Source of the DNA: a virus
Lineage: Duplodnaviria > Heunggongvirae > Uroviricota > Caudoviricetes
Direction: 5' to 3' (one strand)
DNA length: 53,871 nt
Virus record (IMG/VR): IMGVR_UViG_2718218453_000001
Span: 1-53,871 of that record
Part shown: piece by piece, positions 8,916 through 53,174 of the stretch
Position numbering within the stretch: position 1 is the stretch's first letter
How the letters are laid out: the number at the start of each line of letters is the position of its first letter
Position numbers and translations under genes: made by a program
The notes under the pieces: model-generated
The model's input: the letters and a program-made list of their open reading frames with translations, nothing else
What the model was told of the DNA's origin: nothing
Databases searched by the model: none

Positions 8916-9463
8916 ATCACCTCCCCGGCAGGCAGCCGTGCAGAAAGGGAGAGCACATAATCACGGACCAGCGAAAGGCGTGCAAAGCGCTCATCGCAGG
9001 CCACGGTGCGAAGCATACAGATGCGGGGTTGAGTGTCAGCACGGCGGATTGCGGCAAGCACAAAGACATATTGCGGGTAAAACGGGGTGAGGGTTGTAGC
9101 CATGATGGCAGCCTCCATTGAGTAGCGGTTATTGCTACCACCGGAAACGCCAATTTCACTGGTGGCAGCCCGAACGGGGTTGGCGTAACCGGCCTCAATG
9201 GATACCGGCCAGCCCGAAGGCTGCCCCGCCCGGACTGCCATTATCTCGAAAGAACCACGGTGTACGCATAAACACCACAGCCTGGAAAATGGGTGTGCCA
9301 GAGCTTCGACGAAAAAAAAGACGCTTGGCGCGTCTGGTGTCGCCATTGAGTTTCGCGGAACGCCAATTCCGGCTGCCGATTTTGCGGCAGCGGAAAAACT
9401 ATACCTGGAAATGACTGCAGGATGCAAGCCAGAAAAATGGGGATTAATGCGTTCAGGCATCAT
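8912..9463 (-). CDS. Hypothetical protein, start uncertain
   Basis: ORF coupled to the alpA stop; N-terminal half has odd composition, so the true start may be internal (for example [10 protein letters not shown]...). Confidence 0.35.
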
Positions 9464-9723
9464 TATGCATCACATCCCCGTCCGCGGGCACTTATACGAT
9501 CCGCCATCCATGCGCTTACCTCTGACTGTGCCCAGGCAACATTTTTACCACCAAGCGGGATCTGCTTCGGGAAAGCATCGCGGCTTATCAGGTCGTATAT
9601 AGTTGAGCGGGACAAGCCGCATAAATGCATCACCTCGGGAAGACGTAAAAATCGCTCATGCTGGTTCAGCACAGGAAATAATGGCGCAGCCGGAGCTGGC
9701 GCAGAAACAGAAATATCATGCAT
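9463..9723 (-). CDS. alpA: AlpA-family transcriptional regulator / excisionase-like
   Basis: Motif [22 protein letters not shown]...[23 protein letters not shown] typical of AlpA/Vis-family HTH proteins. Confidence 0.85.
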
Positions 9724-10284
9724 TTATCTACCCTCTTTAATTCCTTCATCAGTCCGGATAAATCCCCCCGGATTCAGGTAGTTCCTTATTATGTATATAT
9801 TTCTCGCTTACGCACCCATTATTTATTTAGCGTCACATATTGATTTAATGGAATTTAAAACTATATCAAACCACATAAAATGGCATGATAGATATTATGT
9901 CTGCGAACTATAAATACAGGGACATTAATAGGAACTAACTTTCATCCAGGGGTTACTACCCCATAAGTCATAGAACTTAATGGTACTGAAACCGCAACCC
10001 ATTCAGCAGGGATGCACAATTTCTACATATGGCTTTACATTGCAAACCTAACTTCAGGATATACTCATGAATTGCATCAAGCTCAGAAGAATTAGAACCG
10101 CATAAAATCAATAACCACGCATTCTTAACCTAAAAATATATCCAAATAAATTCATAAAAGACCGAGCAGTTCTAGTTTTATAAAAATCAGATTGAAATGC
10201 AACACCAGGGAAAGGGGGGAATCATGTTATTTCCCGGCAAAGAAAAATCGTCTATTTCATCATCTGTTGAATACTACTGAAGAG

Positions 10285-10480
10285 TGGTGAATAGTTGTGA
10301 GGAACAATAATGAAATAATCATTCGGAATAAAAATTTCACTTTTGATGAAAAAAAATCATAAATCACGCTACCTTCCGATGAACACTCATGAACAGTCAC
10401 TGAATACTGCCTTGTCAACCCTTCACCTCTTAACTAGCTGTATTATCAATTTTTTTATCAAAGTGAACAGTAGTGAATAG
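10285..10480. promoter_or_regulatory. Second iteron cluster (candidate crr-like replication region)
   Basis: Repeated GTGAATAG / TGAACAG / GTGAACAG motifs (10286, 10390, 10463, 10473) in the AT-rich intergenic region; ATCACGCTA is shared with the 5831 region; about 4.5 kb from the first cluster. Confidence 0.35.
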
Positions 10481-10546
10481 TATTTATTAAAGGAAAGTTG
10501 AAGATCAGACATGACACATTTCTCTGGCTAGCCAGAACAAGGTCAT

Positions 10547-10564
10547 TGTTCTGTCACTGACACA
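10547..10564 (+). promoter_or_regulatory. Delta/Ogr-dependent late promoter dyad upstream of sid
   Basis: TGT-N12-ACA inside the perfect inverted repeat ATTGT...ACAAT, centred about 80 nt upstream of the sid start codon. Confidence 0.6.
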
Positions 10565-10636
10565 ATCCCCCTCGGTAGTGCGCTTGTATGGGCATCGGCA
10601 CAATTGACACGACAACAAAACACTACCGGAGCATTC

Positions 10637-11389
10637 ATGACTACTGTTAACCAGATCTCTGATGCAAACATTACATCCTCCCTCCCGCCGAAAATTCGCG
10701 AAGCGGTGGAAAAAGTTAAGGCAGCAAAAGCTGTCTGGCAGGAAGAACGGCGAAAACAAACTGAAGCTGCTGCAATGATTGAAACTATCCGTAAACGTCA
10801 GGAAGATACAAAAACGGAAACGCAGGCGCTTAATGATGAATGGCGAAACCTGTTTCGTGAGAATCAGGGAAATATGACACCACGCATGAAAAAACTGCGG
10901 GCAGAAATCGCCCTCGGACGCGAAACACTGGATGAGTTCGAAGATTTGCTGGCAGCTCAGGTGGCAGAAAATGAATTCCTGCCCTGGAAAACTGCGGATG
11001 CTGCAAACCACTACATCAGCGAACATAATCGCCTGATTGAAACTCATGCAGTGTGGCTCTGGAATGAGTTTATGAAGGAACACGGCCAGAAACTTATTCA
11101 GATCCTTGGACTGTTGAAAATGACTCTGGGCCGAAGCGCTTCTGCTGTTATCGGTGTAGTTCATACCGTAAACGACCCCGAAAGTGTGCTGAAGCAATTT
11201 ATCAGCGAGCAACTCACCACTCCGGCACTGTCCTGTAACGTATCTTCAACGGATGATATTACCCTGCCGGGGATCAGCATTTATGCGGACGATAAAGCCA
11301 TCCAGGATGCCAGACAATCCCCCAGCCCTGCAGCGCGTTCACGGATGCTTAAACAGCGTGACATGGTTAAAGGGGGCGAGAAGAAATGA
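10637..11389 (+). CDS. sid: Sid-like external scaffold (capsid size determination) protein
   Basis: 250 aa from ATG with GGAG RBS; highly charged alpha-helical composition; first gene after the late-promoter dyad, followed by psu and delta. Confidence 0.6.
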   Translation: MTTVNQISDANITSSLPPKIREAVEKVKAAKAVWQEERRKQTEAAAMIETIRKRQEDTKTETQALNDEWRNLFRENQGNMTPRMKKLRAEIALGRETLDEFEDLLAAQVAENEFLPWKTADAANHYISEHNRLIETHAVWLWNEFMKEHGQKLIQILGLLKMTLGRSASAVIGVVHTVNDPESVLKQFISEQLTTPALSCNVSSTDDITLPGISIYADDKAIQDARQSPSPAARSRMLKQRDMVKGGEKK

Positions 11390-11940
11390 ATGCCGGAACC
11401 ATTACTCAGGAAGCTCTCAACGATTACCGCTCGGCGATAAAAAGCTGGCTGACACTACGTAATACGCAAAGTACCTACCAGCTTCGTCTGGCGGCTCTGC
11501 TGAATACTGAAGAAAAACCGGCAGCATATGCCAGCCAGCTTGAGGAGCTTCGTGAGCGTCTTGCTGTCCTCGAATGGCAGATTAACTGTGCTGCACGGGA
11601 TGGTCTTTATGCTCACCAGATTGTGCTGGAGAGTTGTGTTACAAGCGCAACGGAAAACTTCATGAGCGAGCATGGTGATGCACTCACTGACGCACTGGCT
11701 CCTTTTCTTTGCGCTCCATACGGGCTTGAGGCGGCAATGAAAATATTACGAACCGCTGTAGCCCGACAAACGGAAGTGCGTACTCCGGTAATTTCAGCAG
11801 CATACAAGAGCATTATCGACGAAACCGGATTAACGGTGGATGCATCAATGTACGCTGATGCTTCAACCAGTTTCACCCCGGCACAACATAAAGTTTTCCT
11901 GGCCCGCCTTAACCGACTTAATGAAAAAGGAGGGTACTGA
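11386..11940 (+). CDS. psu: Psu-like polarity suppression / capsid decoration protein
   Basis: 184 aa, ATGA overlap with sid; position and size match P4 Psu. Confidence 0.6.
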   Translation: MNAGTITQEALNDYRSAIKSWLTLRNTQSTYQLRLAALLNTEEKPAAYASQLEELRERLAVLEWQINCAARDGLYAHQIVLESCVTSATENFMSEHGDALTDALAPFLCAPYGLEAAMKILRTAVARQTEVRTPVISAAYKSIIDETGLTVDASMYADASTSFTPAQHKVFLARLNRLNEKGGY

Positions 11941-11941
11941 T

Positions 11942-12214
11942 ATGGCCCTGAAGTGTCCTGAATGTGGGACGGTCGCTCACGCCAGAACCAGCGCCTATGA
12001 AGCTCCATCGGTTAAACGCTCATGGTATCAGTGCCAGAATCTGGAATGTTCCTGCACATTTACCGCTCTGGAAAGCGTGGATACGATAATTATGAAGCCT
12101 TGGCGCAATGAACAGGAATCAGACAAAGAACAAATGCCAGAAAAACAACAGCAAACTCTCAACCGCTATGGCTCCGCGTCAAAGCTGTCAAGCCGTCAGC
12201 TAATTCCTGTCTGA
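11942..12214 (+). CDS. delta: Delta/Ogr-family zinc-finger late transcription activator
   Basis: CPECGTVAHARTS...YQCQNLECSCTF matches the Ogr/Delta CxxC-N22-CxxxxC zinc finger; AGGAGGG RBS. Confidence 0.85.
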   Translation: MALKCPECGTVAHARTSAYEAPSVKRSWYQCQNLECSCTFTALESVDTIIMKPWRNEQESDKEQMPEKQQQTLNRYGSASKLSSRQLIPV

Positions 12215-12238
12215 TTAGCAAAATACGCCCACGTAGTC

Positions 12239-12262
12239 CCGGTCCAGTACCGGGATTTTTTA
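12239..12262 (+). terminator. Rho-independent terminator of sid-psu-delta operon
   Basis: Stem cccggt / accggg followed by TTTTTT. Confidence 0.65.
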
Positions 12263-12289
12263 CGCCTTTTCCCTGGCTGGCCTGAAGGC

Positions 12290-12450
12290 GTATGAGTGCA
12301 TATCTATAGCGCATGAAAACGCATGAGTCTCATGCGCCATTTTTGACGCGAAAGCCCTTGTGTGGTGGCTTCTGAGACGATTTACGGGGTGCATGAAAAC
12401 CAGTCTGTTAAGCGAAGCGGGCAGGCGGGCGGGGCAGCGCACGCTGTGTA
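12290..12450. other. cos-like region of satellite (putative cohesive-end site)
   Basis: Homologous block-by-block to 28535-28695 of the prophage (gtgcatatctatagcgcatga, ggtgcatgaaaacca, aagcgggcaggcg); GGCGGGCGGGGCAGCGCAC at 12424-12442 resembles the P2/186 19-nt cohesive end as recalled. Confidence 0.5.
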
Positions 12451-12639
12451 TGGTCAAAGTAACTTTTAACTTTCAATGAGTACCTGATTGAAAGAATCGT
12501 TTATCACGTTAAAGCGATAACAATGATTTTAAGCAGCGAGTGTGGTGTAAGTATCATTGTCGAGTAAAAATGTTGCAAGCTATTGAAATAAGTATATATT
12601 GCAAATGATGAGGAAAATAAAATATGCAAGGACCTACTC

Positions 12640-13038
12640 ATGGATGCACTGCATGTCGCGCTTGAAAATCTGATTAGAGATGATGGTCAAACACTAAATA
12701 GTTATTTTAGTGAAGTTAAAGTTAATTCATTGATTGAAAATACAAATGCAACTTGTCATTTTCATTGCCTTAATCTTGATGGCAATGGACGTCCTCGGGT
12801 AGACGCGTTAATCCAATTCTTGAACGATAAAGTAGTTGATTATGCTATTCCAAGGAAAAAAATCAATGAGGCAGTGCAATATTTTAATGAAACACAATCA
12901 ACAGCGAAAATAACAAAATTAGCAAATCAAGCAAAAAATTATTTACTAGGCTTGCAAATAGTGGCGAAGGCGGTGAATTTATTCTTTTTTTATTTGCAGA
13001 GCAATTCCTTAGATTTCCACAAATTATTTGCAAAATGA
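12640..13038 (+). CDS. Hachiman HamA-like protein, N-terminal part (possibly one gene with next ORF)
   Basis: AT-rich 132-aa ORF; ends in ATGA overlap with the next ORF; a T7 homopolymer at 12985-12991 lies where the two frames are both open. Confidence 0.45.
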   Translation: MDALHVALENLIRDDGQTLNSYFSEVKVNSLIENTNATCHFHCLNLDGNGRPRVDALIQFLNDKVVDYAIPRKKINEAVQYFNETQSTAKITKLANQAKNYLLGLQIVAKAVNLFFFYLQSNSLDFHKLFAK

Positions 13039-13580
13039 GCCTGAAAACGAGTTCTCAAATGCATTACCATGGTGCAGATGGAATACATATAGGCGTAGAT
13101 AAAGATAATAAAAAATTATGTTTATACTGGGGCGAGTCTAAACTCTATTCCAATCTGAGCAAAGGTATTTCTGAGTGTATGGATAGTATAGCTCCATTAC
13201 TTCAAAGTTCTATGGGAATAGAAGGCGCTGAGACACGTGATATGCAGTTGCTGGAGTCGCACTTAAATGTTGATGATATAGAACTAGAACAAGCGTTGAA
13301 AAGATTCTTAGATCCTGATAGCCCGGATTTTAATAAATTGGAATACAGAGGAATATGCTTAGTTGGGTTTGATCTTAAAGATTATCCACAAGGGCCCAGT
13401 TCAATTGATATCAGTGAACTAGTTGCTTTGATTAATACTAAAGTCGGGAAATGGTCAACTAGTGTGCAAGGTGGTATAGTTAATAAAAAACTTGATCGCT
13501 TTGCTATGCATGTTTTTATTCTTCCTTTTCCTTCAGTAAAAGCATTTAGGGCTAGTTTAATTAAAGCATTGGAGAGTTGA
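13035..13580 (+). CDS. Putative PD-(D/E)xK-type nuclease module (HamA-like, C-terminal part)
   Basis: 181 aa; motif GVDKD...LCLYWGESK resembles a D...ExK nuclease core; stop 2 nt before the helicase ATG. Confidence 0.5.
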   Translation: MSLKTSSQMHYHGADGIHIGVDKDNKKLCLYWGESKLYSNLSKGISECMDSIAPLLQSSMGIEGAETRDMQLLESHLNVDDIELEQALKRFLDPDSPDFNKLEYRGICLVGFDLKDYPQGPSSIDISELVALINTKVGKWSTSVQGGIVNKKLDRFAMHVFILPFPSVKAFRASLIKALES

Positions 13581-13581
13581 A

Positions 13582-16164
13582 ATGTCGTTGCGAGATTTAT
13601 CTGGGTGGTTGATTAAGAATCAAGGATTCTTAAGAAAATATCAGGCATTAGTCGCTAACTCGATAAAAGATCAATTTCCAGAGTTAAAATCAGATGTAAT
13701 CCCACAGATTAGTTCTGAGGATGTCGGCTATCTTTTAACATGTGCTAGTTCTTTGGCTTTCTCAAGTGATGAGAAATGCCAAGATGCAGCCTTAAGGATT
13801 GCACAGTATTGCTTATTGAATGAAAAAAGTGAAGCAAGAAAAGATAGTGCTGCATTAATTCTTGATTCATTATCTAATAATCCAGCAATACAACTTGCTG
13901 AAAATAGGGGGTATCTTAACCCTGATTTCGAAGAAAGATTACCCTTAAAGGCTCAGTTAGAACTAACTAAAAGAAAAATTCTATATACAATTGAAATAGA
14001 TGCTGATAAGCATATTTATGCTAATAGGTTTCAATCAGAGTTTTGGGATGCGGTACAAGAAAACTCATGGGTTAGTGTCTCTGCTCCTACCTCTGTAGGA
14101 AAATCATTTATCCTGGAATCTTGGGTGGAGCAGTTTGTAAAAAGAAATAAGAATTGCTTAGTTATTTATATCGTACCAACAAGGGCATTGATTTCAGAAG
14201 TATATTCTGAGTTGCAAAAACGTTTGGATCCTAATTTAACAAATATAGTTAATATTCAGACACTACCATTGAGTAATGTATACCAGAGCGAAAAATCTAA
14301 TGTCTTCATATTTACACAGGAAAGATTAAATTTATTCTACAATCATTTCTCACAAATTCCAAAGATAGACGTCTTAGTTGTTGATGAAGCACACAAGATC
14401 GGTGATGGTGGAAGAGGTGTTATTCTTCAACATGTAATTGAACTGACTTGTCTAAATAACCCTGATTCAAAAGTTATCTTTGCAAGTCCTTTCACCTTAA
14501 ATCCTGAAATATTGCTCAGTGATGCTCCAATATTAAAAAACAAAAGAACTATAAAAAGTGACTATGTTACAGTTAATCAAAATTTAATATGGGTAGAACA
14601 AAAACCACGCAAGACCAAAGATTGGTTGATGTATTATTTTGCAAACGGTGAAAAACGCGAGTTAGGAAACTTTTCTTTAGAAAATGCACCATCTCCTGAA
14701 AGTAAAAGATTGCCTTTTGTAGCTCTTTGTTTAGGTAAGGGGGCTTCTGGTAACGTAGTTTACGTAAATGGAGCCGCTGAAGCAGAATCTACTTCCAAGC
14801 TAATATCTGCAAGTATAGAAAATGAGACTGAGGATGAAGAAATTTTAGCTCTCGTTGAGCTTAGTGAGACAATTATACATAAAAATTTCGCATTAAATCG
14901 CACTCTAAAAAAGAGAGTCGCTTTTCATTATGGCAACATGCCTTTAATAATAAAGGGCGAGATTGAACGATTGTTTAGTAAAGGTAAGATTGATTTTTTA
15001 ATTTGTACCTCAACTTTAGTTGAGGGCGTAAACATGGCTTGTAAAAATATTTTTATAAGAGGCCCTAAAAAGGGTAATTCAACCCCGATGCGAGAAGAGG
15101 ATTTTTGGAATCTTGCTGGCAGAGCTGGTCGTTGGGGAAAAGAATTCCAAGGTAATGTCATCTGCATCGATAGCGACAATGAAAAAATTTGGAATGGAGA
15201 GCCTCCAAAAACCAAAAAAAATATATTTATAACTCGCGCCACGGATGCTATTTCCCATGACATGGATAAGTTGGTTTCCTATATTTTTTCAGAGCATCAT
15301 TTTGGTATGTCTGAGCGGAATCCTAATCTCCAGAGTCTATTTAGTTATTTATGTTCATCATTTTATTTTTATAATGGCTTGGATAATAATCCTTACATGG
15401 AAAAGTACAATATAAAAAATATCGATGTTTTAAATGAAGCAATATTTGATGTTTTTGATTCTTTAACTTTTCCACACGAATTGGTTGTGCGGCATCCTGG
15501 TATAAGCCCGCTTTTAATGCAAAACCTTTGGGATAGATTTTCGCGGGATACAAACAAACCTGTAGAGAGATTACTGCTTTCTGAACCTGGTAGTAATGAT
15601 GCGTTAGATTCATATGTATCCGCATTCTCTAGAATTAGTGATACTCTGAGTAAGAAGCTAGGTTATAATTCAAAAGGAGCTTACGTACAGGCCTTGTTAG
15701 TTTCCAAGTGGATGAAAGGTTATCCCCTAGCAAGATTGATCTCGGATAGAATAAGATATAACAAAAAGAAAAATATTGTTTTCAAAGAAGCGACTTTAAT
15801 ACGAGGGGTTATGAAGGATGTTGAAGAGATCGCTCGCTATCAAGCTCCAAGGCTTTTAGGATGTTATAATGATTTATTAAAAAGCTTTTATCTTTCGATA
15901 GATCGCACAGACTTAGCAAAAGATGTTGAAGATATCGGTGTTTATTTAGAACTGGGTGTAAGTTTAAAAACTCAGATTTCACTAATAGGGCTTGGCTTTT
16001 CAAGAACTGCTGCTGTAATGATTTCAGAGCTTATTCCTAATGATAGTTTAGATGAGGAAGAATGCATTAATTGGATTAAGGACAATAAAGTTGACATGGA
16101 AGAACTGCCACAATTAGTTCAAAACGAAATACATAATATATTTCGTAACTTTTGGGTACAATAG
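13582..16164 (+). CDS. SF2 (Ski2/Lhr-like) helicase, Hachiman HamB-like
   Basis: Walker A APTSVGKS, motif II VVDEAH, motif VI NLAGRAGRWG, C-terminal RecA-like block FHYGNMP...ICTSTLVEGVNMACKNIFI; 860 aa, AT-rich. Confidence 0.8.
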   Translation: MSLRDLSGWLIKNQGFLRKYQALVANSIKDQFPELKSDVIPQISSEDVGYLLTCASSLAFSSDEKCQDAALRIAQYCLLNEKSEARKDSAALILDSLSNNPAIQLAENRGYLNPDFEERLPLKAQLELTKRKILYTIEIDADKHIYANRFQSEFWDAVQENSWVSVSAPTSVGKSFILESWVEQFVKRNKNCLVIYIVPTRALISEVYSELQKRLDPNLTNIVNIQTLPLSNVYQSEKSNVFIFTQERLNLFYNHFSQIPKIDVLVVDEAHKIGDGGRGVILQHVIELTCLNNPDSKVIFASPFTLNPEILLSDAPILKNKRTIKSDYVTVNQNLIWVEQKPRKTKDWLMYYFANGEKRELGNFSLENAPSPESKRLPFVALCLGKGASGNVVYVNGAAEAESTSKLISASIENETEDEEILALVELSETIIHKNFALNRTLKKRVAFHYGNMPLIIKGEIERLFSKGKIDFLICTSTLVEGVNMACKNIFIRGPKKGNSTPMREEDFWNLAGRAGRWGKEFQGNVICIDSDNEKIWNGEPPKTKKNIFITRATDAISHDMDKLVSYIFSEHHFGMSERNPNLQSLFSYLCSSFYFYNGLDNNPYMEKYNIKNIDVLNEAIFDVFDSLTFPHELVVRHPGISPLLMQNLWDRFSRDTNKPVERLLLSEPGSNDALDSYVSAFSRISDTLSKKLGYNSKGAYVQALLVSKWMKGYPLARLISDRIRYNKKKNIVFKEATLIRGVMKDVEEIARYQAPRLLGCYNDLLKSFYLSIDRTDLAKDVEDIGVYLELGVSLKTQISLIGLGFSRTAAVMISELIPNDSLDEEECINWIKDNKVDMEELPQLVQNEIHNIFRNFWVQ

Positions 16165-16196
16165 TCTTATTTAGACGATTTTTTAAACAATCAATA

Positions 16197-16245
16197 GAGA
16201 AGTTTTTGAATTTTATCATTCTTCCAGTAACAAAAACTTCTCTTT
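16197..16245. terminator. Bidirectional hairpin between convergent genes
   Basis: Perfect 13-bp inverted repeat AGAGAAGTTTTTG / CAAAAACTTCTCT. Confidence 0.5.
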
Positions 16246-16256
16246 TATAACACCGC

Positions 16257-16715
16257 TCAGGCTATTCCAGAATAGGCTTTGCTTACTTCACTATGCCTTG
16301 TGCCGCAATGCCTCAAAATAACAAGGCCATGTTGCAGTAACGCCTCACTACGTTCAGGTTCAAACCATTTCCCGTTAAATTTTCCTCCGTGAAAAAGATT
16401 GTTTCTTACACGGCGGATTAACAAAAAAAGAAATTTTGCTAAATCTTTTTCTTGTGGTAAAGAATCATCCCAAACTAAAGAGTCATCTTCTATGATTTGT
16501 TTTTTGGGTGGGTGTTCTTTAAAGTAGGTGATAGCAGCAATTAGCTCTGGATCAGTTGTGTTATTTATGATTTCAGAAACTTGCTTTGCATACTCATCCC
16601 AGTTCGCTTTAGCATCTTTTATTTTATGATGAAGTCCACATGCCTTAAGGCAATATTCATAACGTGAAAACTCTCTAAAGAATTCATAACATAAATTATC
16701 TAGATTATTCTCCAT
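16257..16715 (-). CDS. HEPN-motif protein (putative RNase-type abortive-infection or toxin component)
   Basis: 152 aa, AT-rich; R-x4-H motif RNNLFH near C-terminus; GGAGAT RBS; downstream of and co-directional with int. Confidence 0.55.
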   Translation of the reverse strand: MENNLDNLCYEFFREFSRYEYCLKACGLHHKIKDAKANWDEYAKQVSEIINNTTDPELIAAITYFKEHPPKKQIIEDDSLVWDDSLPQEKDLAKFLFLLIRRVRNNLFHGGKFNGKWFEPERSEALLQHGLVILRHCGTRHSEVSKAYSGIA

Positions 16716-16744
16716 GAACTATATCTCCATGTATAACAAGTTAA

Positions 16745-17944
16745 CTAATATTGATTGCGCTCGTACACTTTTTGGCCCCACCAATTCATAAGTCCTATTC
16801 GTTGCTCAAGGTAAGTTGAACGATTATATGCTCTGCGCACTTCATTTTTATCACTATGTGCAAGAGCAGCCTCAATTACATCTGCATTAAAACCCGCTTC
16901 ATTTAATGCGGTGCTGGCAATTGAACGCAATCCATGAGCAACCAATCTACCACCAAATCCAATCCTTTTTAAAGCAGCATTTGCCGTCTGGCTATTCATT
17001 GGTTGCTTTGGGTCATTCCGACTCGGGAAAACATGTTCACGATGGGCACTGATTAGCTTCATCACATCAAGAATCTCTAATGCCTGAGGAGATAGAGGGA
17101 CTATGTGTTCCCGCTTAGCCTTCATTCGTTCAGCTGGGATAGTCCAGAGCTTTGCATCGAGATCGAGCTCAGCCCACCTAGCACCGGAAGCCTCAGAAGG
17201 ACGAACTAGAGTCAGGAGTTGCCACTCAATGAGGCAGCGAGTCGGAACAGACAAATTTGACATGACGAGAGAACGCATCAGCATAGGCAATTCTTCTGGG
17301 CGCAACGTAGGCATATTTTGTTTTTTTGGCTTCTCAAAGGCCATTCCAATGCCTGATGCTGGATTGGCATCAATAAGACCAGTATTTACGGCATAAATCA
17401 TTATCTCGTTAACACGCTGCACCAACCGGCGCACCGTCTCCAGCGCCCCACGAGCTTTGATCGGTTCAAGGGCTTCAACCAGTGTTCGGGCTTTGATTTG
17501 CTGGACAGGGATCTCCCCGATGGTGGGGAATACGTCTTTTTCCAGTGAACGCCATATATCTTTAGCGTAATCATGGGTAACGCTTTTGCTTTTGAGCTGG
17601 AACCAGTTAGCGGCGACCGTCGAAAAAATACTGTCCAGAGCGATTTGCTGCTGTTCCTCTGCAACTTCAGCTTGAATTTGCGGGTCGATTCCGTTGGCTA
17701 ATAGGGCAAGGTAATCTGCTCTTAACCCTCGGGCATCAGCAAGAGAAAGGGCAGGAAAAGCACCAAGTCCCATCATAGTCCGCTGTTTTGTTGCTGGGCG
17801 TTGATAGCGAAAGCGCCAGAGTTTCTTGCCGCTAGTTTTCACTATCAGGAAAAGCCCATCGCCATCATGCAGCGTTAGATCCTTCTCTAACGCTTTCGCG
17901 CGCAGAACTTCGGTGTTGGTCAGGGGGCGTGTTGTCCGTGCCAC
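16745..17944 (-). CDS. int: P4-type tyrosine integrase
   Basis: 399 aa; N-terminal MARTTRPLTNTEVLRAKA...DGDGLFL typical of P4/CP4-57 IntA-like integrases; adjacent to ssrA core copy. First codon is GTG. Confidence 0.9.
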   Translation of the reverse strand: MARTTRPLTNTEVLRAKALEKDLTLHDGDGLFLIVKTSGKKLWRFRYQRPATKQRTMMGLGAFPALSLADARGLRADYLALLANGIDPQIQAEVAEEQQQIALDSIFSTVAANWFQLKSKSVTHDYAKDIWRSLEKDVFPTIGEIPVQQIKARTLVEALEPIKARGALETVRRLVQRVNEIMIYAVNTGLIDANPASGIGMAFEKPKKQNMPTLRPEELPMLMRSLVMSNLSVPTRCLIEWQLLTLVRPSEASGARWAELDLDAKLWTIPAERMKAKREHIVPLSPQALEILDVMKLISAHREHVFPSRNDPKQPMNSQTANAALKRIGFGGRLVAHGLRSIASTALNEAGFNADVIEAALAHSDKNEVRRAYNRSTYLEQRIGLMNWWGQKVYERNQY

Positions 17945-17967
17945 TGTGGCCGCTCCTTCATGAATTG

Positions 17968-18014
17968 GTATACGCTTTTAGGTATACATCCTACCGTATA
18001 CCGAAACGTATACC
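17968..18014. promoter_or_regulatory. Four GTATAC(C) direct repeats (candidate integrase arm-type sites)
   Basis: GTATAC at 17968, 17982, 17996, 18008 with 12-14 bp spacing between int and att. Confidence 0.45.
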
Positions 18015-18060
18015 AATAATCATCGGATTTAGCCGGATGTTCTCGGACAACGACAAACAC

Positions 18061-18095
18061 AAAAAAGCCCGCAGGGCTTGTGCCATGCGGGCTTT
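18061..18095 (-). terminator. Rho-independent terminator following the ssrA 3' copy
   Basis: Minus-strand hairpin agcccgca...tgcgggct followed by TTTTTT. Confidence 0.55.
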
Positions 18096-18128
18096 CTGTA
18101 CTTCACCGGACGTATCCGGATCATTATT

Positions 18129-18173
18129 TGGTGGAGCTGGCGGGAGTTGAACCCGCGTCCGAAATTCCTACAT
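18129..18173 (-). repeat. 45-bp direct repeat of ssrA 3' end (att core)
   Basis: TGGTGGAGCTGGCGGGAGTTGAACCCGCGTCCGAAATTCCTACAT identical to 52812-52856. Confidence 0.9.
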
Positions 18174-18258
18174 ACTATCTTAACTATAACAAAAACAATG
18201 ATTTGCTTTTTAAAACAGTAGGTTGGTATTACTCGGTGTTTGTTCATTTTACTCGTTT

Positions 18259-19212
18259 TTAATGCTCTGCCGCCAAAGTGCCGCCAGTCTTTCTTGAATC
18301 TTCTAATGCTTCATGATCTTTAATTAGTACCTTCAACGAGTTAATTACTTTAATTTGGCATTCCTTAATTAAGTCAGGTAATTTTTCATCAATCTTTGTT
18401 TCTTTTGAATAGAATAAAGTTCTGTTAATGCAATTTTCCAGTCCTCCACTCTCATTCAAATCGGGGAATAGTACAAATCTCCCAAATGCAATGCCATTTT
18501 CCACTTCAACATATACCTTTGGGTGCTCATCTATATAACCGTGGTGAATTATATGATTTCGTAATGATGTTACAGTGTTTATAAAATTGCTATTTTCAAA
18601 TATGGTATCCGTTGTTGTCGAAAAAACTAATTCTTTATAGTTGCCGTATAATTTATTTTTGGATATTAATTTCTTGTATTTAGAGATTGGGAAGTTACTC
18701 TTTAATAATTCAAAGGAGATTTTAGTAACGTAGTCAAACAAACTATTCATTTTTATAAATAGCATGCTTAACAAAGAAAATAGCAAGCTTGTTTTTGGCG
18801 ATTTTGCTACTAAAATCCCTTTAAAATCTTTGTCTGGTGTGGTTATTAACAAATCGCTCCAGAGTATTTCATAAAATTGTTGCGCTATAACAGAGAGTTC
18901 CAAACTACACTCTGTTATATATGAAATTAAGACTTCACAGTCTTGGATGTAAAGAATGTTTGAATCAAAAAATTGCGTTAATTTATTAAAAGTGTTTTTG
19001 CAAACTTGAGATTCCGAGTTATGACCAACATCTCTGATAGTGTAAATGTTAGATTCTTCGGCGATGGAAATCCTTTCTTTTATTTTATCGAAAATTGCAT
19101 ACAGGGCTATACTTAGATTTTCGATTTCATATTGTTCGTTTGTATAGATGATGTTATTCATCAGATCACTTCCTATTTCTATAATGGAGTTAGAGGTTTT
19201 TTGTAACTGCAT
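18259..19212 (-). CDS. Hypothetical protein, partner of RES-like gene (cargo)
   Basis: 317 aa, strongly AT-rich, ATG with AAGAGG RBS, 33 nt downstream of the RES-like gene. Confidence 0.65.
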   Translation of the reverse strand: MQLQKTSNSIIEIGSDLMNNIIYTNEQYEIENLSIALYAIFDKIKERISIAEESNIYTIRDVGHNSESQVCKNTFNKLTQFFDSNILYIQDCEVLISYITECSLELSVIAQQFYEILWSDLLITTPDKDFKGILVAKSPKTSLLFSLLSMLFIKMNSLFDYVTKISFELLKSNFPISKYKKLISKNKLYGNYKELVFSTTTDTIFENSNFINTVTSLRNHIIHHGYIDEHPKVYVEVENGIAFGRFVLFPDLNESGGLENCINRTLFYSKETKIDEKLPDLIKECQIKVINSLKVLIKDHEALEDSRKTGGTLAAEH

Positions 19213-19245: not shown

Positions 19246-20457
19246 TTAAGGCTCAAGATAATCATGCTTCATCATTTTATGAATTAACAATTGAACTTTT
19301 TTGAATGAGGTATTATTGTAATATTCCACTAGCGATTCATCAAAATCTTCAATTGTACCTGATGCTGGAGTTGGTCCTCCCATTATGAGTCTATCTTCAT
19401 CCATACCATCGGTCTTGACGTTTAAAGTGCTAAATACTTGCCATGAAACAGGTTTGGTAAATTTAAATATATTTAGTAAGTGTGGGCAGTAATCATAACC
19501 AGAATCCAAAATATTATCCATTTTAGGTGGCATGATTATATTAATACCAATATCACTATCTTTTTGATTGAGAATTTTAGTCGTGCGATAAGCGATACCG
19601 GCTATGCCCTTATTTTCATTGCTGCTGAGCCATTGCATAAGAAGGTTGGGGATTATGTACTCAGGGTTGAAACTAGAGTTTTTATGTTGTTTTGTATAAT
19701 TACAGGCTAACACAAGTGGCCAGGAAATTAAGTTCGAAATGACCCTATTCATAGTTCCTTCAGTATCATTATCTAACAGCCATGCTAAGGTGTTTATGTT
19801 CAATGCTGATCTCAAATTATAACCAAGGTTAAGTATTCTATGTGATGAACCAGACTCTGTGATGAATGAAGATACATATAATTTATCAAAGTCTGGTTTT
19901 TCCATTTCTTGCCAACATACAAAAATAGAGGTTCCTAAATATAAACAAGGAAGGCCTGAGACTGAGTATCTTTGTGCATTCACAAGATAACGTTTAGAAA
20001 AAGGAATATGAAAGATATCACGCCTTTCTTTTATTATTTGATCGCTTTTTCTTACGCGAAATAGAGGTTTTCCAGGATGACAAAACACACTTAATGGAAC
20101 GGACATATTATAGATGTGGTCATTTATATTTGTCTTGGTGATAGCGTGATCAAATGTTAGGTAAGATTCTTTGATTTTACCGTTTAAATATAATCTAAGT
20201 GTTTCTGAAATTTTATCCGAGAGTGTTTTTGTGCTTTTTATTTTTGATTTTATTTCACGAATTACAAGGTTGTGAGGGTTTTTACTGTAAATCTTGTTTA
20301 TGACTTCTAGGTAACATTTAACCCTATTGTTAAAATCTTTAATGATATTATTTCCCGCGAGATAAGGAGCTTGTAATAGTGGTTTGGACTCTATTTCGAA
20401 TAATATTTCATTAAGCATTGCTACATAATCTGTGGTACTAATTTTATTAATTTTCAT
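19246..20457 (-). CDS. RES-domain-like protein (cargo)
   Basis: 403 aa, AT-rich; segment QRYSVSGLPCLYLGTSIFVCWQEM resembles the RES-domain core (Arg ... Glu); starts 4 nt after int stop. Confidence 0.65.
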   Translation of the reverse strand: MKINKISTTDYVAMLNEILFEIESKPLLQAPYLAGNNIIKDFNNRVKCYLEVINKIYSKNPHNLVIREIKSKIKSTKTLSDKISETLRLYLNGKIKESYLTFDHAITKTNINDHIYNMSVPLSVFCHPGKPLFRVRKSDQIIKERRDIFHIPFSKRYLVNAQRYSVSGLPCLYLGTSIFVCWQEMEKPDFDKLYVSSFITESGSSHRILNLGYNLRSALNINTLAWLLDNDTEGTMNRVISNLISWPLVLACNYTKQHKNSSFNPEYIIPNLLMQWLSSNENKGIAGIAYRTTKILNQKDSDIGINIIMPPKMDNILDSGYDYCPHLLNIFKFTKPVSWQVFSTLNVKTDGMDEDRLIMGGPTPASGTIEDFDESLVEYYNNTSFKKVQLLIHKMMKHDYLEP

Positions 20458-20461
20458 TATG

Positions 20462-21481
20462 TTAAATCGCTAGTGATGATAAAGGGTTTTTTGTTACAGC
20501 ATCTTCAAGATGCTCAGGTGAAAAATGAGAATAGACCATAGTCATTTTTATATCTGAATGGCCTAAAATATCTCTTAGTACAAGAATATTCCCTCCATTC
20601 ATCATAAAGTAACTGGCGAATGTATGGCGCAAGACGTGGGTACATTGTCCCTCTGGCAAGTCGATACCAGCTCGTTTAACTGCACGCTCAAAAGCTTTTC
20701 TGCATGGGGTGAATAACTTCCCTCTGTTCTTGGGGAGTTCGTCATACAGATCCTGAGATATCGGCACGGTACGGTTTTTCTTGCCCTTCGTCTTGGTATA
20801 AGTGATGCGGTATTTTGATAACTGATGGCCCTGCAGGTTTTCTGCTTCACTCCACCGCGCACCAGTAGCTAGGCATATTTTTGCAATCATCAGCAGGCTG
20901 GGGCTTTGAGAATCCGCGCAGGCATCCAGCAGGCGTTTAATTTCTTCTGGGGTCAGGAATGCCAGTTCACCCTCTGCGATTTTGAATGTTGGCAGACCGG
21001 CGAGCGGGTTAGGGGCTGACCAGTGGCCCAGTTTTTTCAGAGTCCCAAAAACTGATGATAGGTTGCGTTGTTCGAGGTTTACCGTTCGGGGCTTAACTGG
21101 CGACATAAGCGCGCCATCTTCATTTCGCACTTCACCTTTTAATCGCGCTTCACGGTATTTCGTAAAATCTCCGGCGGTCAGCTCTGAGGCGATAGGGTCG
21201 CCCAGGCCATTACAGATAATTCTAAGTTTCGCCATCAGGCGTTTGGGGTCTGCGAGCGTCTGCCCGTATAGTGAGTGCCATTGCTCTATCACTTCTGACA
21301 GATGCCGCCGATCTTCCTTTTCCCCCAGCCATGGTTTTTTGTTTACTTCATCCATGGTGAAGTTTTCGAATGCTACGGCTTCGCCTTTCGTCGCAAATTG
21401 CTTGCGCACGCGCTTGCCGTCCCGCCCGTTAGGGTAGCACTCACACAACCATTTTCCGTTCGGCTGTTTACTGATGGTCAT
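20462..21481 (-). CDS. int: P2/186-type tyrosine integrase
   Basis: 339 aa; C-terminal HVLRHTFAS...ILGHSDIKMTMVYSH catalytic motifs; position next to the repressor gene. Confidence 0.9.
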   Translation of the reverse strand: MTISKQPNGKWLCECYPNGRDGKRVRKQFATKGEAVAFENFTMDEVNKKPWLGEKEDRRHLSEVIEQWHSLYGQTLADPKRLMAKLRIICNGLGDPIASELTAGDFTKYREARLKGEVRNEDGALMSPVKPRTVNLEQRNLSSVFGTLKKLGHWSAPNPLAGLPTFKIAEGELAFLTPEEIKRLLDACADSQSPSLLMIAKICLATGARWSEAENLQGHQLSKYRITYTKTKGKKNRTVPISQDLYDELPKNRGKLFTPCRKAFERAVKRAGIDLPEGQCTHVLRHTFASYFMMNGGNILVLRDILGHSDIKMTMVYSHFSPEHLEDAVTKNPLSSLAI

Positions 21482-28534: not shown

Positions 28535-28695
28535 TGTGGTGCATGTCTATGCCGCATGAGATCGCATGATCGTTTGAGGATCGTTTTTGCTAAGGCCTGC
28601 CAGAACTGGCGGGCTTTTGCGTAGATCATGCAGGTGCATGAAAACCACTACATAAAGCGGGCAGGCGTGGCGGGGATACGAGCGCGCGCAAGGTA
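28535..28695. other. cos-like region of prophage (putative cohesive-end site)
   Basis: GGCGTGGCGGGGATACGAG at 28664-28682 shares its first 13 nt with the 186 cohesive end as recalled; surrounding about 150 bp homologous to satellite 12290-12450. Confidence 0.5.
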
Positions 28696-28829
28696 TAGAA
28701 ACAGTCGTTTGTTTACAAACAGATACTATGATTTTCAATGTTCTTTCAAATTGTTGCTTTAAGATAGCAGGTAGATGTTTGTAGTTGTTGCGTGAACTGA
28801 TAAGCTTCAACAACTATCGAGGAAAGGAT

Positions 28830-29897
28830 ATGAAGCGGCTAACTGAAGAACAAATTGAACATTCTTTGATCAGAGCAAGGAAGATTGCGAAGCGGGAGTC
28901 AAGAAAGCTTTCTGGTGGAAGACGGATGCTACAGCCCATGCGGGTATTCTCTCGTGTGAGAATACCCGCGCCTGCGTCATTGGACTTATTTAATACTAAA
29001 AATTACAAACTATTTATAGAGTTTATCACTTTAATCAGAGATTACATCAATGATGGTGAGAAAATTTTAATAGATTTCAGAAATACAAAATCTCTGAAAG
29101 CATGTGCAGTAATCGTATTGTATGCACATATTGACTTTTTACAAAGGCAAACAAAAGATAAAAATATAATTTCTATTACTACGTGCGGTTCACCCAGGGC
29201 AAATAACTGGTTTAAAATATGTGGTATTTGGGGGATTACAGGGTTTCAGCGTATAGCTGCAGATAAGCTTAATTCAATGGAAATTGTTTCCGCTGTTGCA
29301 GGCAAAACTAGAGATGATCATGAAAGTGCCGAAGCAAGACAAAAAATTAAAAATATTCTACGTTATATAAAAGATACCATTTATGAAGGTAAGATTTCCG
29401 CTTCGGATGGTGTGAAATTATATGCAGCATTAACTGAATCTATTAGCAATGTTGGTCTACATGCGTATTCAAATGAAGAACAGTTCTCTGAATTTATTGA
29501 GGACATTGGTAAAAGATGGTGGATATTGGCACACAAAGTCGAAGAACAACTATTTTTGATGGTGTATGATATGGGAGAAGGTATCCCAGTTACATTGGTT
29601 AAAAAAGACTTTTTCACATTTATCGCTCAGATATTTAATCCTAAGACGGATTCTGATAAAATATTCGCGGCTGTACAGTATGGTGAGACAAGAATGAATA
29701 GTCAGAAGCATGGTAAAGGATTACCTGATATGAAAAGGTATGTTGTAGATAACCCTGAGGGGCAGTTACATATTTTTAGTGGAATGGGACGATATTCTTA
29801 TGATGCTGAAAATAATGTTGAAGATAAATTTGATCTGCCATACTCCATAGGTGGAACCCTTATTCAATGGAATGTAAGTTTGAGAGGTGCTGAATGA
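28830..29897 (+). CDS. RsbW/SpoIIAB-like GHKL kinase/ATPase domain protein (cargo gene 1)
   Basis: AT-rich; GHKL motifs: N-box ESISNVGLHAY, G1 VYDMGEGIP, G2 GKGLPD; start at ATG 28830 with GAGGAAAGG RBS; inverted repeat TAGTTGTTG / CAACAACTA just upstream. Confidence 0.7.
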   Translation: MKRLTEEQIEHSLIRARKIAKRESRKLSGGRRMLQPMRVFSRVRIPAPASLDLFNTKNYKLFIEFITLIRDYINDGEKILIDFRNTKSLKACAVIVLYAHIDFLQRQTKDKNIISITTCGSPRANNWFKICGIWGITGFQRIAADKLNSMEIVSAVAGKTRDDHESAEARQKIKNILRYIKDTIYEGKISASDGVKLYAALTESISNVGLHAYSNEEQFSEFIEDIGKRWWILAHKVEEQLFLMVYDMGEGIPVTLVKKDFFTFIAQIFNPKTDSDKIFAAVQYGETRMNSQKHGKGLPDMKRYVVDNPEGQLHIFSGMGRYSYDAENNVEDKFDLPYSIGGTLIQWNVSLRGAE

Positions 29898-30214
29898 AAA
29901 TCAAAGAGATACATGTTGCTGAAGATTTTTCAGATGTTCCCTATGGCCGCTATGATGAGGATGGTCCTGATAATGGACAACGTTTCCGTGAAAAGTATCT
30001 TTTGAAAGCCATCCAAGATTATGATGAGGTGCACGTGTACCTTGATGGTGCTATGGGTTATGGTTCTTCATTCTTGGAAGAGGCGTTTGGTGGACTTTAT
30101 AGAACAAATAATATAGATAAAGCTATAATTAGGAAAAAATTAAAAATATTTACTGATTTGGATTTCCTCAAGGATAGTATATGGGGATATATTTCTGATG
30201 CTAAAAAGGAGTGA
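29894..30214 (+). CDS. STAS-like (anti-sigma-antagonist fold) small protein (cargo gene 2)
   Basis: 106 aa, ATGA overlap with gene 1; VHVYLDGAMGYGSSFLEEAFGGL resembles STAS/DUF4325-like sequences. Confidence 0.6.
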   Translation: MKIKEIHVAEDFSDVPYGRYDEDGPDNGQRFREKYLLKAIQDYDEVHVYLDGAMGYGSSFLEEAFGGLYRTNNIDKAIIRKKLKIFTDLDFLKDSIWGYISDAKKE

Positions 30215-30219
30215 TGTTC

Positions 30220-30708
30220 ATGGATGAACTTCCGGTTTATCTGCGGTTATTACAATACCTTGCTAGTTCAGGTGTGATTGCAATTCTAACAGCCTTGATT
30301 GGTTGGGTTTTTGTATATAGAAACTCCCGTGCGTTGCAAAAGAGGAGTGAAACATGGTCAATTGTAAAAAATGTTTCAGATAATTTAAAGGAAATTGAAT
30401 CTGCATCAAGAAAGTTTTGGATACCGGGAGATTCAAAAGAAATTGATGCAATGTCATTTCAAAATGAGATAACAGCACTTCTTGCGGAGACCGAGCGGTG
30501 GTTGAATCATCTAAAACAACGCATTAATATCGAAGGTGACTATAAACCTTTGATTGCTGATTTATTCAAAGATGCTACATCTAATATTGAAAAAGCACAG
30601 GAGTATGATAAAAGTCAAAGGACAAGAATTAGTGTATTAGTGTCAAAAAGGGCGAAAATAATTAAATCTCTAATTGATGAGTCTTATCAGAAAAAATTCT
30701 TAAAGTGA
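30220..30708 (+). CDS. Small membrane protein (cargo gene 3)
   Basis: N-terminal hydrophobic helix LASSGVIAILTALIGWVFVY then charged helical region; AAAGGAG RBS 8 nt upstream; overlaps gene 2 stop. Confidence 0.6.
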   Translation: MDELPVYLRLLQYLASSGVIAILTALIGWVFVYRNSRALQKRSETWSIVKNVSDNLKEIESASRKFWIPGDSKEIDAMSFQNEITALLAETERWLNHLKQRINIEGDYKPLIADLFKDATSNIEKAQEYDKSQRTRISVLVSKRAKIIKSLIDESYQKKFLK

Positions 30709-52803: not shown

Positions 52804-52811
52804 GATTTATT

Positions 52812-53174
52812 TGGTGGAGCTGGCGGGAGTTGAACCCGCGTCCGAAATTCCTACATCCTCGGTACTACATGCTTAGTCAGTCTTTACATTCGCTTGCCAG
52901 CTGCGGACGGACACGCCACTAACAAACTAGCCTGATTAAGTTTTAACGCTTCAACCCCAGGCAGGGCTTCCACGCGATCTCTTTTGGGTTTGACCTCTCT
53001 TGATCCCCGTCCTAAGAGCGGAGGCTAGGGAGAGAGGGCTCTAAGCAGGTTATTAAGCTGCTAAAGCGTAGTTTTCGTCGTTTGCGACTATTTTTTGCGG
53101 CTTTTTACGAGGCCAACCGCCCCTCGGCATGCACCTTGGGTTTCGCAAATCCCGTCGAATCCAGAATCAGCCCC
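52812..53174 (-). ncRNA. ssrA: tmRNA (SsrA)
   Basis: Reverse complement gives GGGGCTGATTCTGGATTCGACGGG at the 5' end and ...GGACGCGGGTTCAACTCCCGCCAGCTCCACCA at the 3' end, matching the enterobacterial tmRNA sequence as recalled; 363 nt. Confidence 0.95.

Follow-up and report, generated by a model that had tools for sequence, protein, structure and literature searches.

A Hachiman operon in the defence hotspot of a P4-like satellite

The window analysed here (IMG/VR virus record IMGVR_UViG_2718218453_000001, positions 1 to 53,871; 53,871 nucleotides, nt) contains a P4-like satellite that spans approximately 5.7 to 18.17 kb and carries a Hachiman defence operon (12640-16164) whose nuclease gene, hamA, is interrupted by a frameshift. 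The genes of the satellite are, in order, the alpha primase, Ash, AlpA, two genes of the Psu family and Ogr/Delta, followed by a cos-like site, a cargo block and the integrase; the succession psu, delta, cos, cargo, integrase was present in identical loci too. The cargo block (12.5-16.7 kb) is AT-rich, with a GC content of 33 to 37% compared to about 50% in the satellite core. The cos-like region (12390-12450) lies approximately 200 bp upstream of hamA; it is similar to the cos region in the P2-like prophage next to the satellite. This position agrees with a first-pass annotation of the sequence, which had described an AT-rich operon close to a satellite cos site. The satellite integrase (16745-17944, minus strand), recognized from the annotation of identical loci and a match to Pfam Phage_integrase, forms the right border of the hotspot. 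We conclude that the operon is cargo of the main defence hotspot of the satellite, bounded by psu/delta/cos and by the integrase, and that the satellite is integrated at ssrA.

Both genes of the operon are on the plus strand. The first, hamA (DUF1837 nuclease; 12640-13580), is present as two overlapping open reading frames (ORFs), ORF1 (12640-13038, 132 amino acids, aa) and ORF2 (13035-13580, 181 aa). A putative Shine-Dalgarno sequence, AAGGA, can be read at 12628-12632 (plus strand), and a putative promoter-like site, TTGCAA-16-TATATT (12573-12600, plus strand), lies about 40 nt upstream of hamA; it had 9 of 12 matches in a consensus scan, a score not above shuffle expectation. The second gene, hamB (13582-16164), is intact and encodes an 860-aa, Ski2-like helicase of superfamily 2 (SF2); its ATG starts 1 nt after the hamA stop codon. 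Reading the sequence confirmed what the first-pass annotation had reported, namely an 860-aa SF2 helicase with the motifs APTSVGKS, VVDEAH and NLAGRAGRWG, preceded by two ORFs of which the second has a D...ExK nuclease-like motif. Helicase motifs I, II (DEAH) and VI are intact.

The annotation had further proposed that these genes form the HamA nuclease and HamB helicase pair of Hachiman. This proved to be correct, on the basis of PADLOC, Pfam and fold matches. With the PADLOC HamA1 profile (PDLC00163), ORF1 aligned to profile positions 3-133 (E = 9e-35) and ORF2 to positions 134-312 (E = 2e-75). The two ORFs therefore cover consecutive parts of a single profile, and the split is not a chance pairing of two genes. 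After repair of the frame, HamA matched the same profile from end to end (E = 9.5e-136, 450 bits), so that the earlier view of two small ORFs as one frameshifted HamA is also upheld. Pfam PF08878 (HamA) matched ORF2 with 139.5 bits, compared to a cut-off of 25. The helicase matched PADLOC HamB1 (PDLC00186; E = 0 over residues 1-856) as well as Pfam DEAD and Helicase_C, and its exact sequence was found on 682 contigs. Residues D147, E166 and K168 (the D...ExK motif, here D147...E166-S-K168, numbered on the intact protein) are invariant in an alignment of 36 homologues and are all present in ORF2. Searching with the repaired HamA retrieved 973 homologues; among the best 120, only two were shorter than 200 aa, and most were 312 to 404 aa long.

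Structural comparison gave a similar picture. A single-sequence search of HamA against the PDB gave no match and a profile search gave weak AbpA matches only, so that a fold search was needed to reach the HamA of E. coli ECOR31. The sole significant PDB match of an AlphaFold model of an intact homologue (P0004, 98% identical; pLDDT 82.5) was this ECOR31 HamA, 8vxy_A (E = 4.7e-4, probability 1.00, target-normalized TM-score 0.55). For HamB, the closest relative in the PDB was 9wh1_B (E = 4e-58, residues 115-815), with 8zue_B (AbpB) and, more distantly, 8vx9_B (ECOR31 HamB) also found. Chain B of 9wh1 was deposited as 'DNA polymerase theta (Helicase domain only)'; given its AbpA/HamA-C partner, it is evidently part of an AbpAB or Hachiman-type complex. 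The operon is a type I Hachiman (HamA1/HamB1) of a subfamily other than the structurally studied one. The Hachiman system itself is already known, and RefSeq already annotates the intact proteins.

Position and consequence of the frameshift

The first-pass annotation had located the split at a T7 tract (12985-12991, plus strand), noting that both frames are open across it and that a one-nucleotide change there would fuse the ORFs. Both frames are indeed open across T7 (frame 0 over 12888-13580, frame 1 over 12640-13038). The lesion, however, lies elsewhere. Nineteen complete E. coli genomes matched the locus at 99.8% identity or more, and in 18 of them the span was 1 nt longer and had a single annotated coding sequence of the HamA family; the length of 313 aa was confirmed in fetched annotated regions. 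When aligned with strain 190 and a further ten intact loci, the window has an A6 tract at 12933-12938 (plus strand) where the intact copies have A7, that is, a 1-nt deletion. This is the sole difference between the window and the intact copies over 3.85 kb, and the T run is T7 in both. Inserting one A gives exactly the 313-aa RefSeq protein WP_016809718.1. Inserting a T into T7 also fuses the ORFs, but as a repair it is wrong: a patch of 17 residues (100-116) is left out of frame, the invariant G109-E110-G-G112-E113 motif is destroyed, and the profile score is 412 bits compared to 450. The T8-fused product of the A6 allele (that is, a compensated A6+T8) was not found in a collection of 15 billion proteins. 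The alignment and the profile scores thus rule out the T7 run as the lesion. The T7 tract has its wild-type length here and is a frameshift hot spot in other strains; an A7 tract at 12856-12862 (plus strand), intact in the window, is a third hot spot elsewhere.

As a result of the deletion, ORF1 consists of 99 native residues followed by 33 out-of-frame residues up to the stop at 13038, while ORF2 starts at M133 and corresponds to native residues 133-313. Residues 100-132 are in neither product. They hold 9 of the 41 invariant columns of the alignment (F102, G109, E110, G112, E113, L124, P127, Q128 and K132), and in the AlphaFold model they form the end of a helix (89-103), a second helix (112-123) and a strand (128-131) situated just before the strands of D147 and E166-x-K168; among the missing parts is the nuclease fold's first core helix. 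The stop codon of ORF1 and the start codon of ORF2 share the overlap ATGA, and no Shine-Dalgarno sequence was seen before ORF2 on reading the sequence. In ECOR31, deletion of hamA or mutation of E138/K140 abolishes defence (PMC12278908); in the S. thermophilus system, HamA has no nuclease activity by itself and cuts DNA only when complexed with HamB (PMC13064477). Since residues 100-132 are not made and ORF2 lacks a Shine-Dalgarno sequence, we infer from the sequence that the A6 allele is most likely a loss of function, and that the window strain is most likely defence-null in spite of its intact hamB.

The A tract is part of a heptamer, A_AAA_AAT (12933-12939), which is in phase with ORF1, and a -1 slip on it would yield a near-wild-type HamA with the single change K100N. 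No stimulatory RNA structure was found downstream of the heptamer (fold z = +0.36), and at most a trace of the K100N protein is therefore expected.

Recurrent frameshifts in hamA

Allele counts were obtained by exact-sequence cluster look-ups of the N-terminal products predicted for +1 and -1 changes at each tract; further alleles were recognized among the cluster members. Intact HamA was found on 823 contigs. At tract 12856, A6 was present on 27 contigs and A8 on one. At tract 12933, the A6 allele of the window was present on 19 contigs, A8 on 14, and the loss of C12932 on 18. At tract 12985, T8 was found on 24 contigs and T6 on four, while the double change A6 + T6 occurred on two (strain 4012 and one other assembly). 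Finally, a change from A6 to A5 at tract 13110 was found on two contigs. Overall, there are at least nine distinct frameshifted alleles on approximately 111 contigs, compared to the 823 intact ones (about 12%). Further hamA variants were seen on Klebsiella and K100R haplotypes.

The same look-ups were made for four control tracts, with denominators of approximately 680 to at least 1000 contigs. The A8 tract of hamB had a -1 change on two contigs, the T7 tract of the integrase on one, and the A7 tract of a neighbouring 152-aa gene on five; none of the three had a +1 change, and the A8 tract of ash had neither. Frameshifts are thus enriched in hamA relative to the control tracts. This excess argues against a technical artefact, and for selection on, or tolerance of, a loss that is specific to the nuclease.

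The A6 allele of the window was found on at least two satellite backgrounds defined by single-nucleotide polymorphisms, each of which also has intact A7 siblings. On the background of the window (7503T/9399C/17133G), the A7 siblings are locus L022 and, by a 100.0% match to the first 25 kb of the window, strain 1-62. On the second background (7503A/9399A/17133A; locus L003), they are loci L015 and L019.

At times hamB is lost otherwise: an IS5-like ISKpn26 insertion interrupts it in strains AH02, AH04 and CT01, where hamA is intact (for strain AH04, locus L023, NZ_CP081706.1, 5634-9415).

Possible explanations of the frameshift

Very probably, the locus is the Hachiman cargo of a P4-like satellite bearing a genuine A7 to A6 deletion in hamA, which is one of at least nine recurrent homopolymer frameshifts and likely leaves the strain defence-null. 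In our best reading, A6 is a segregating allele that arose at mutational hot spots and abolishes the function of a costly abortive-infection nuclease. In intact copies, HamA (a PD-(D/E)xK-type DNase) and HamB (a Ski2-like helicase) would form a heterodimer, as in the published mechanism. HamB would restrain HamA and, during infection, sense 3' single-stranded ends or damaged DNA; this sensing would free the nuclease to degrade DNA, so that the infection would be aborted. The published evidence of anti-phage activity through abortive infection concerns other subfamilies of Hachiman. With the A6 tract, translation would leave the native frame after residue 99 and stop at 13038. The hamA frameshifts that segregate in Enterobacteriaceae are best attributed to slipped-strand mutation at the A/T tracts, together with the loss of the effector being favoured, or at least tolerated, in a system that damages its own host.

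The selective reason is suggested by published observations. DNA damage activates Hachiman, toxicity under bleomycin and mitomycin C rises when the wild-type system is present, and mutants in HamB have a greater sensitivity than those in HamA (PMC12278908). Because the wild type is toxic under DNA damage and HamB mutants are worse off than HamA mutants, loss of the effector would be a safe way to shed a costly system. Such safe shedding would match the asymmetry observed here, in which hamA rather than hamB is hit, and inactivation specific to hamA fits both the published triggering by DNA damage and the poorer performance of HamB mutants. The recurrent 1-nt homopolymer hits on the nuclease gene, and not on the helicase or the neighbouring genes, may then reveal, in natural populations, how costly an abortive-infection effector is to fitness.

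Several points weigh against this interpretation. Contigs are not independent events, and clonal sampling could inflate the counts of single alleles. The control set comprises only four tracts, and differences in gene calling could hide some control fragments. Slippage by -1 at A_AAA_AAT could produce traces of the K100N protein, so that 'null' might be 'strongly reduced', and the ATGA overlap could permit some reinitiation at ORF2. Moreover, the advantage of losing hamA is deduced from a distantly related system, whose HamA has 14% identity over the structural alignment.

An unlikely alternative, though the strongest of those considered, is a reversible contingency switch. In this view, the nuclease would be toggled at elevated frequency by the 7-nt A/T tracts that lie within the first third of hamA, and lineages would escape Hachiman autoimmunity and later regain defence. 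All three 7-nt tracts have both +1 and -1 alleles in natural populations, the A6 allele arose at least twice, and the events behind the fetched A6 loci are recent, as hamA is otherwise unchanged and hamB has at most one base change in these loci. There is also a precedent in inlA of Listeria monocytogenes (PMC2831843), where 1-nt frameshifts at a short poly(A) tract, situated in the gene's 5' part, have recurred, arisen independently at least twice and led to truncated products. For inlA, however, measurements of the switching frequency exist and reversion has been demonstrated, whereas hamA is known from population alleles and its tracts are not conserved among homologues: no tract occupies the corresponding positions in Klebsiella and Acinetobacter hamA, and the K100R haplotype interrupts the A tract. 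The hamA tracts are, besides, only 7 nt long, and their number is not significantly above that expected from a shuffle of synonymous codons (3 tracts of 7 nt or more observed, compared to 1.63 expected; P = 0.06). About 88% of carriers are intact, and neither a compensated allele (A6+T8) nor a demonstrated revertant was found in the protein-collection look-ups. No report of homopolymer or phase variation in Hachiman turned up in a literature search. The phase-variable switch suggested by the first-pass annotation is thus possible in a weak sense: recurrent +1 and -1 variation does exist, but the tracts are neither conserved nor significantly enriched. It seems doubtful that the tracts act as a de facto on/off switch by which the effector, and never the restraining helicase, is repeatedly silenced, autoimmunity triggered by DNA damage is escaped, and defence is regained by a reverse slip. 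If true, this would be a natural example of effector-first, reversible tuning of defence, and would form an exception to the report that P4 satellites are free of defence pseudogenes.

An error of sequencing or assembly in a homopolymer, the true genome having an intact hamA, is very improbable. A 1-nt change in a homopolymer is a classic class of error, and the related complete genome of strain 4012 carries two such deletions (A6 and T6). However, the A6+T6 product of that strain was seen in a second assembly too, and the exact 132-aa ORF1 of the window was found on 19 contigs (27 index blocks) that derive from different samples in the NCBI, ENA and Logan assemblies, including metagenome contigs with SPAdes-type names (NODE_..._cov_). 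All ten of the A6 loci that were fetched have A6 and T7; over 12.4 kb, the locus of GCA_006231975.1, which is among the ten, does not differ from the window. Positions 1-25000 of the window align in one piece with strain 1-62 at 100.0% identity, and the span in strain 1-62 is exactly 1 nt longer. With this single 1-nt difference in length over 25 kb, the window has no general signature of homopolymer errors. A technical artefact should also strike the A8 tract of hamB and the 7- to 8-nt tracts of the neighbouring genes equally, and these are nearly without variants. The sequencing error that the first-pass annotation had offered as a possible cause of the split is thus made very unlikely by many independent assemblies. 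In another A6 locus (L004, GCA_958312345.1), a further 1-nt deletion at the equivalent of 17446 splits the integrase into ORFs of 218 and 180 aa.

The last possibility, a functional HamA made either of two polypeptides that together form an active nuclease or by programmed -1 frameshifting at A_AAA_AAT, is hardly credible: the ATGA overlap would allow translational coupling of the ORFs, and the heptamer is in the right phase for a shift that changes K100N alone, but nine invariant positions are in neither fragment, ORF2 lacks a Shine-Dalgarno sequence, the stimulatory structure is missing, and the split occurs as a minority allele beside an intact gene that is otherwise identical, rather than as the norm of the family. 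Programmed frameshifting was rejected on the last two grounds, as the two-frame arrangement is not conserved. The 'real two-protein variant' that had been envisaged is contradicted by the lengths of the homologues (all but two of the best 120 of the 973 are long enough for a single full-length protein) and by the identical intact protein on 823 contigs; split copies elsewhere were found only in a minority of the carriers of the identical sequence.

Comparison with known systems

The mechanistic reference for type I Hachiman is HamAB of E. coli ECOR31 (PDB 8VX9/8VXY; Tuck et al., Cell 2024, PMC12278908). The operon of the window resembles it in consisting of two genes, the first for a DUF1837 nuclease and the second for an SF2 Ski2-like helicase, in its D147/E166/K168 motif, in helicase motifs I, II and VI and in the predicted fold of HamA, and the HamA1 and HamB1 profiles match end to end. 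It belongs, however, to another subfamily. HamA is 14% identical to that of ECOR31 over the structural alignment, and ECOR31 HamB has 1174 aa compared to 860 aa here, the match (E = 5e-12) having its best stretch in the C-terminal helicase domain. A further difference is the frameshift in hamA, from which the system of the window is predicted to be inactive.

The second known relative is AbpAB of E. coli (PDB 8ZUE, 9WH1). Besides the closeness of 9wh1_B to HamB, chain A of 9wh1 is labelled as an AbpA/HamA C-terminal domain protein and gives a weak match to the HamA profile (E = 0.023), and an AbpAB-like pair fills the same hotspot in a related satellite of strain LAU-OXA. In contrast to the plain 313-aa HamA found here, with its D-ExK motif intact, AbpA carries a further nuclease domain at its N-terminus, and its HamA-like domain is catalytically inactive (PMC12278908). 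The LAU-OXA satellite (L024, NZ_CP045277.1, 13915-17681) is approximately 96% identical to that of the window over the shared parts and occupies the same chromosomal site. Its cargo, a 546-aa protein with a dsDNA nuclease domain and a 709-aa DEAD/DEAH helicase, provides an example of cargo swapping.

The defence hotspot of P4-like satellites lies between the integrase and psu-delta-sid/cos, and Hachiman is listed among the P4-borne systems (PMC13586616 and its reference 10). The locus of the window agrees with this description in position, gene order and AT-rich, swappable cargo. Less than 1% of P4 pseudogenes were reported to resemble defence genes (PMC13586616), whereas here a defence gene is pseudogenized and about 12% of the contigs with this hamA are frameshifted. 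At the level of one cargo type, the hamA locus is a counter-example to the rarity of P4 defence pseudogenes, and the pattern qualifies the recent conclusion that defence genes of P4 satellites are swapped before they decay. A practical consequence is that defence-system callers will score the window strain as Hachiman-positive although it is probably defence-null. In sum, this is a known system in a known place, of which the recurrent inactivation of the effector gene is the modestly interesting part.

Neighbouring genes and the adjacent prophage

The AT-rich 152-aa gene used as a control (16257-16715, minus strand) is convergent with hamB. Its product has an RNNLFH motif (Rx4H, HEPN-like) and is named 'Apea-like HEPN domain-containing protein' in UniRef; it had no Pfam or PADLOC match, and the exact protein was found on at least 1000 contigs. 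We considered the gene as a third Hachiman component and rejected this, as it is absent beside the Klebsiella and Acinetobacter HamAB loci and from the satellite with AbpAB cargo. The gene travels with the HamAB cargo and could encode an independent small toxin or defence function.

A terminator-like hairpin, which can be read 3' of the delta gene (12237-12261, plus strand; stem TCCCGGT/ACCGGGA with a 5-nt loop, followed by T6), was absent from the list given by the consensus scan. It probably ends the sid-psu-delta operon. An Rfam search of 9400-18300 gave no family match.

The satellite is adjoined by a P2/186-like prophage (approximately 18.2-52.8 kb), followed by ssrA (tmRNA, 52812-53174) and smpB. 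A 53-nt direct repeat of the 3' end of ssrA (the attachment site, att), present at 18124-18176 and 52807-52859, brackets the prophage. No link between the frameshift and the prophage was apparent, as both hamA alleles were found with and without it.

Two regions of the prophage have ORFs at positions of P2 hotspots. Between the att repeat and the P2-like integrase (20462-21481), a position that corresponds to a minor P2 defence hotspot (PMC13586616), there are two AT-rich ORFs of 317 aa (18259-19212, minus strand) and 403 aa (19246-20457, minus strand), with a GC content of approximately 29 to 34%; they have no Pfam or PADLOC match and, given their position, are candidates for uncharacterized cargo. 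Two other ORFs, of 370 aa (28785-29897, plus strand) and 165 aa (30211-30708, plus strand), adjoin the cos-like site of the prophage (about 28655) and lie in the P2 hotspot flanked by the replication and portal genes. The former had only a sub-threshold HATPase_c match (18.9 bits) and the latter no Pfam match; neither had a PADLOC match.

In other strains, the satellite directly abuts ssrA. The insertion of the prophage between the satellite and ssrA places the satellite and a potential helper in tandem at one attachment site. The cos-like region of the satellite has in common with that of the prophage (28630-28700) the motifs GGTGCATGAAAACCA and AAGCGGGCAGGCG..GGCGGGG..AGCGC.CGC, and the presence of GGTGCATGAAAACCA and AAGCGGGCAGGCG..GGCGGGG in both elements fits packaging of the satellite by a helper of such a type.

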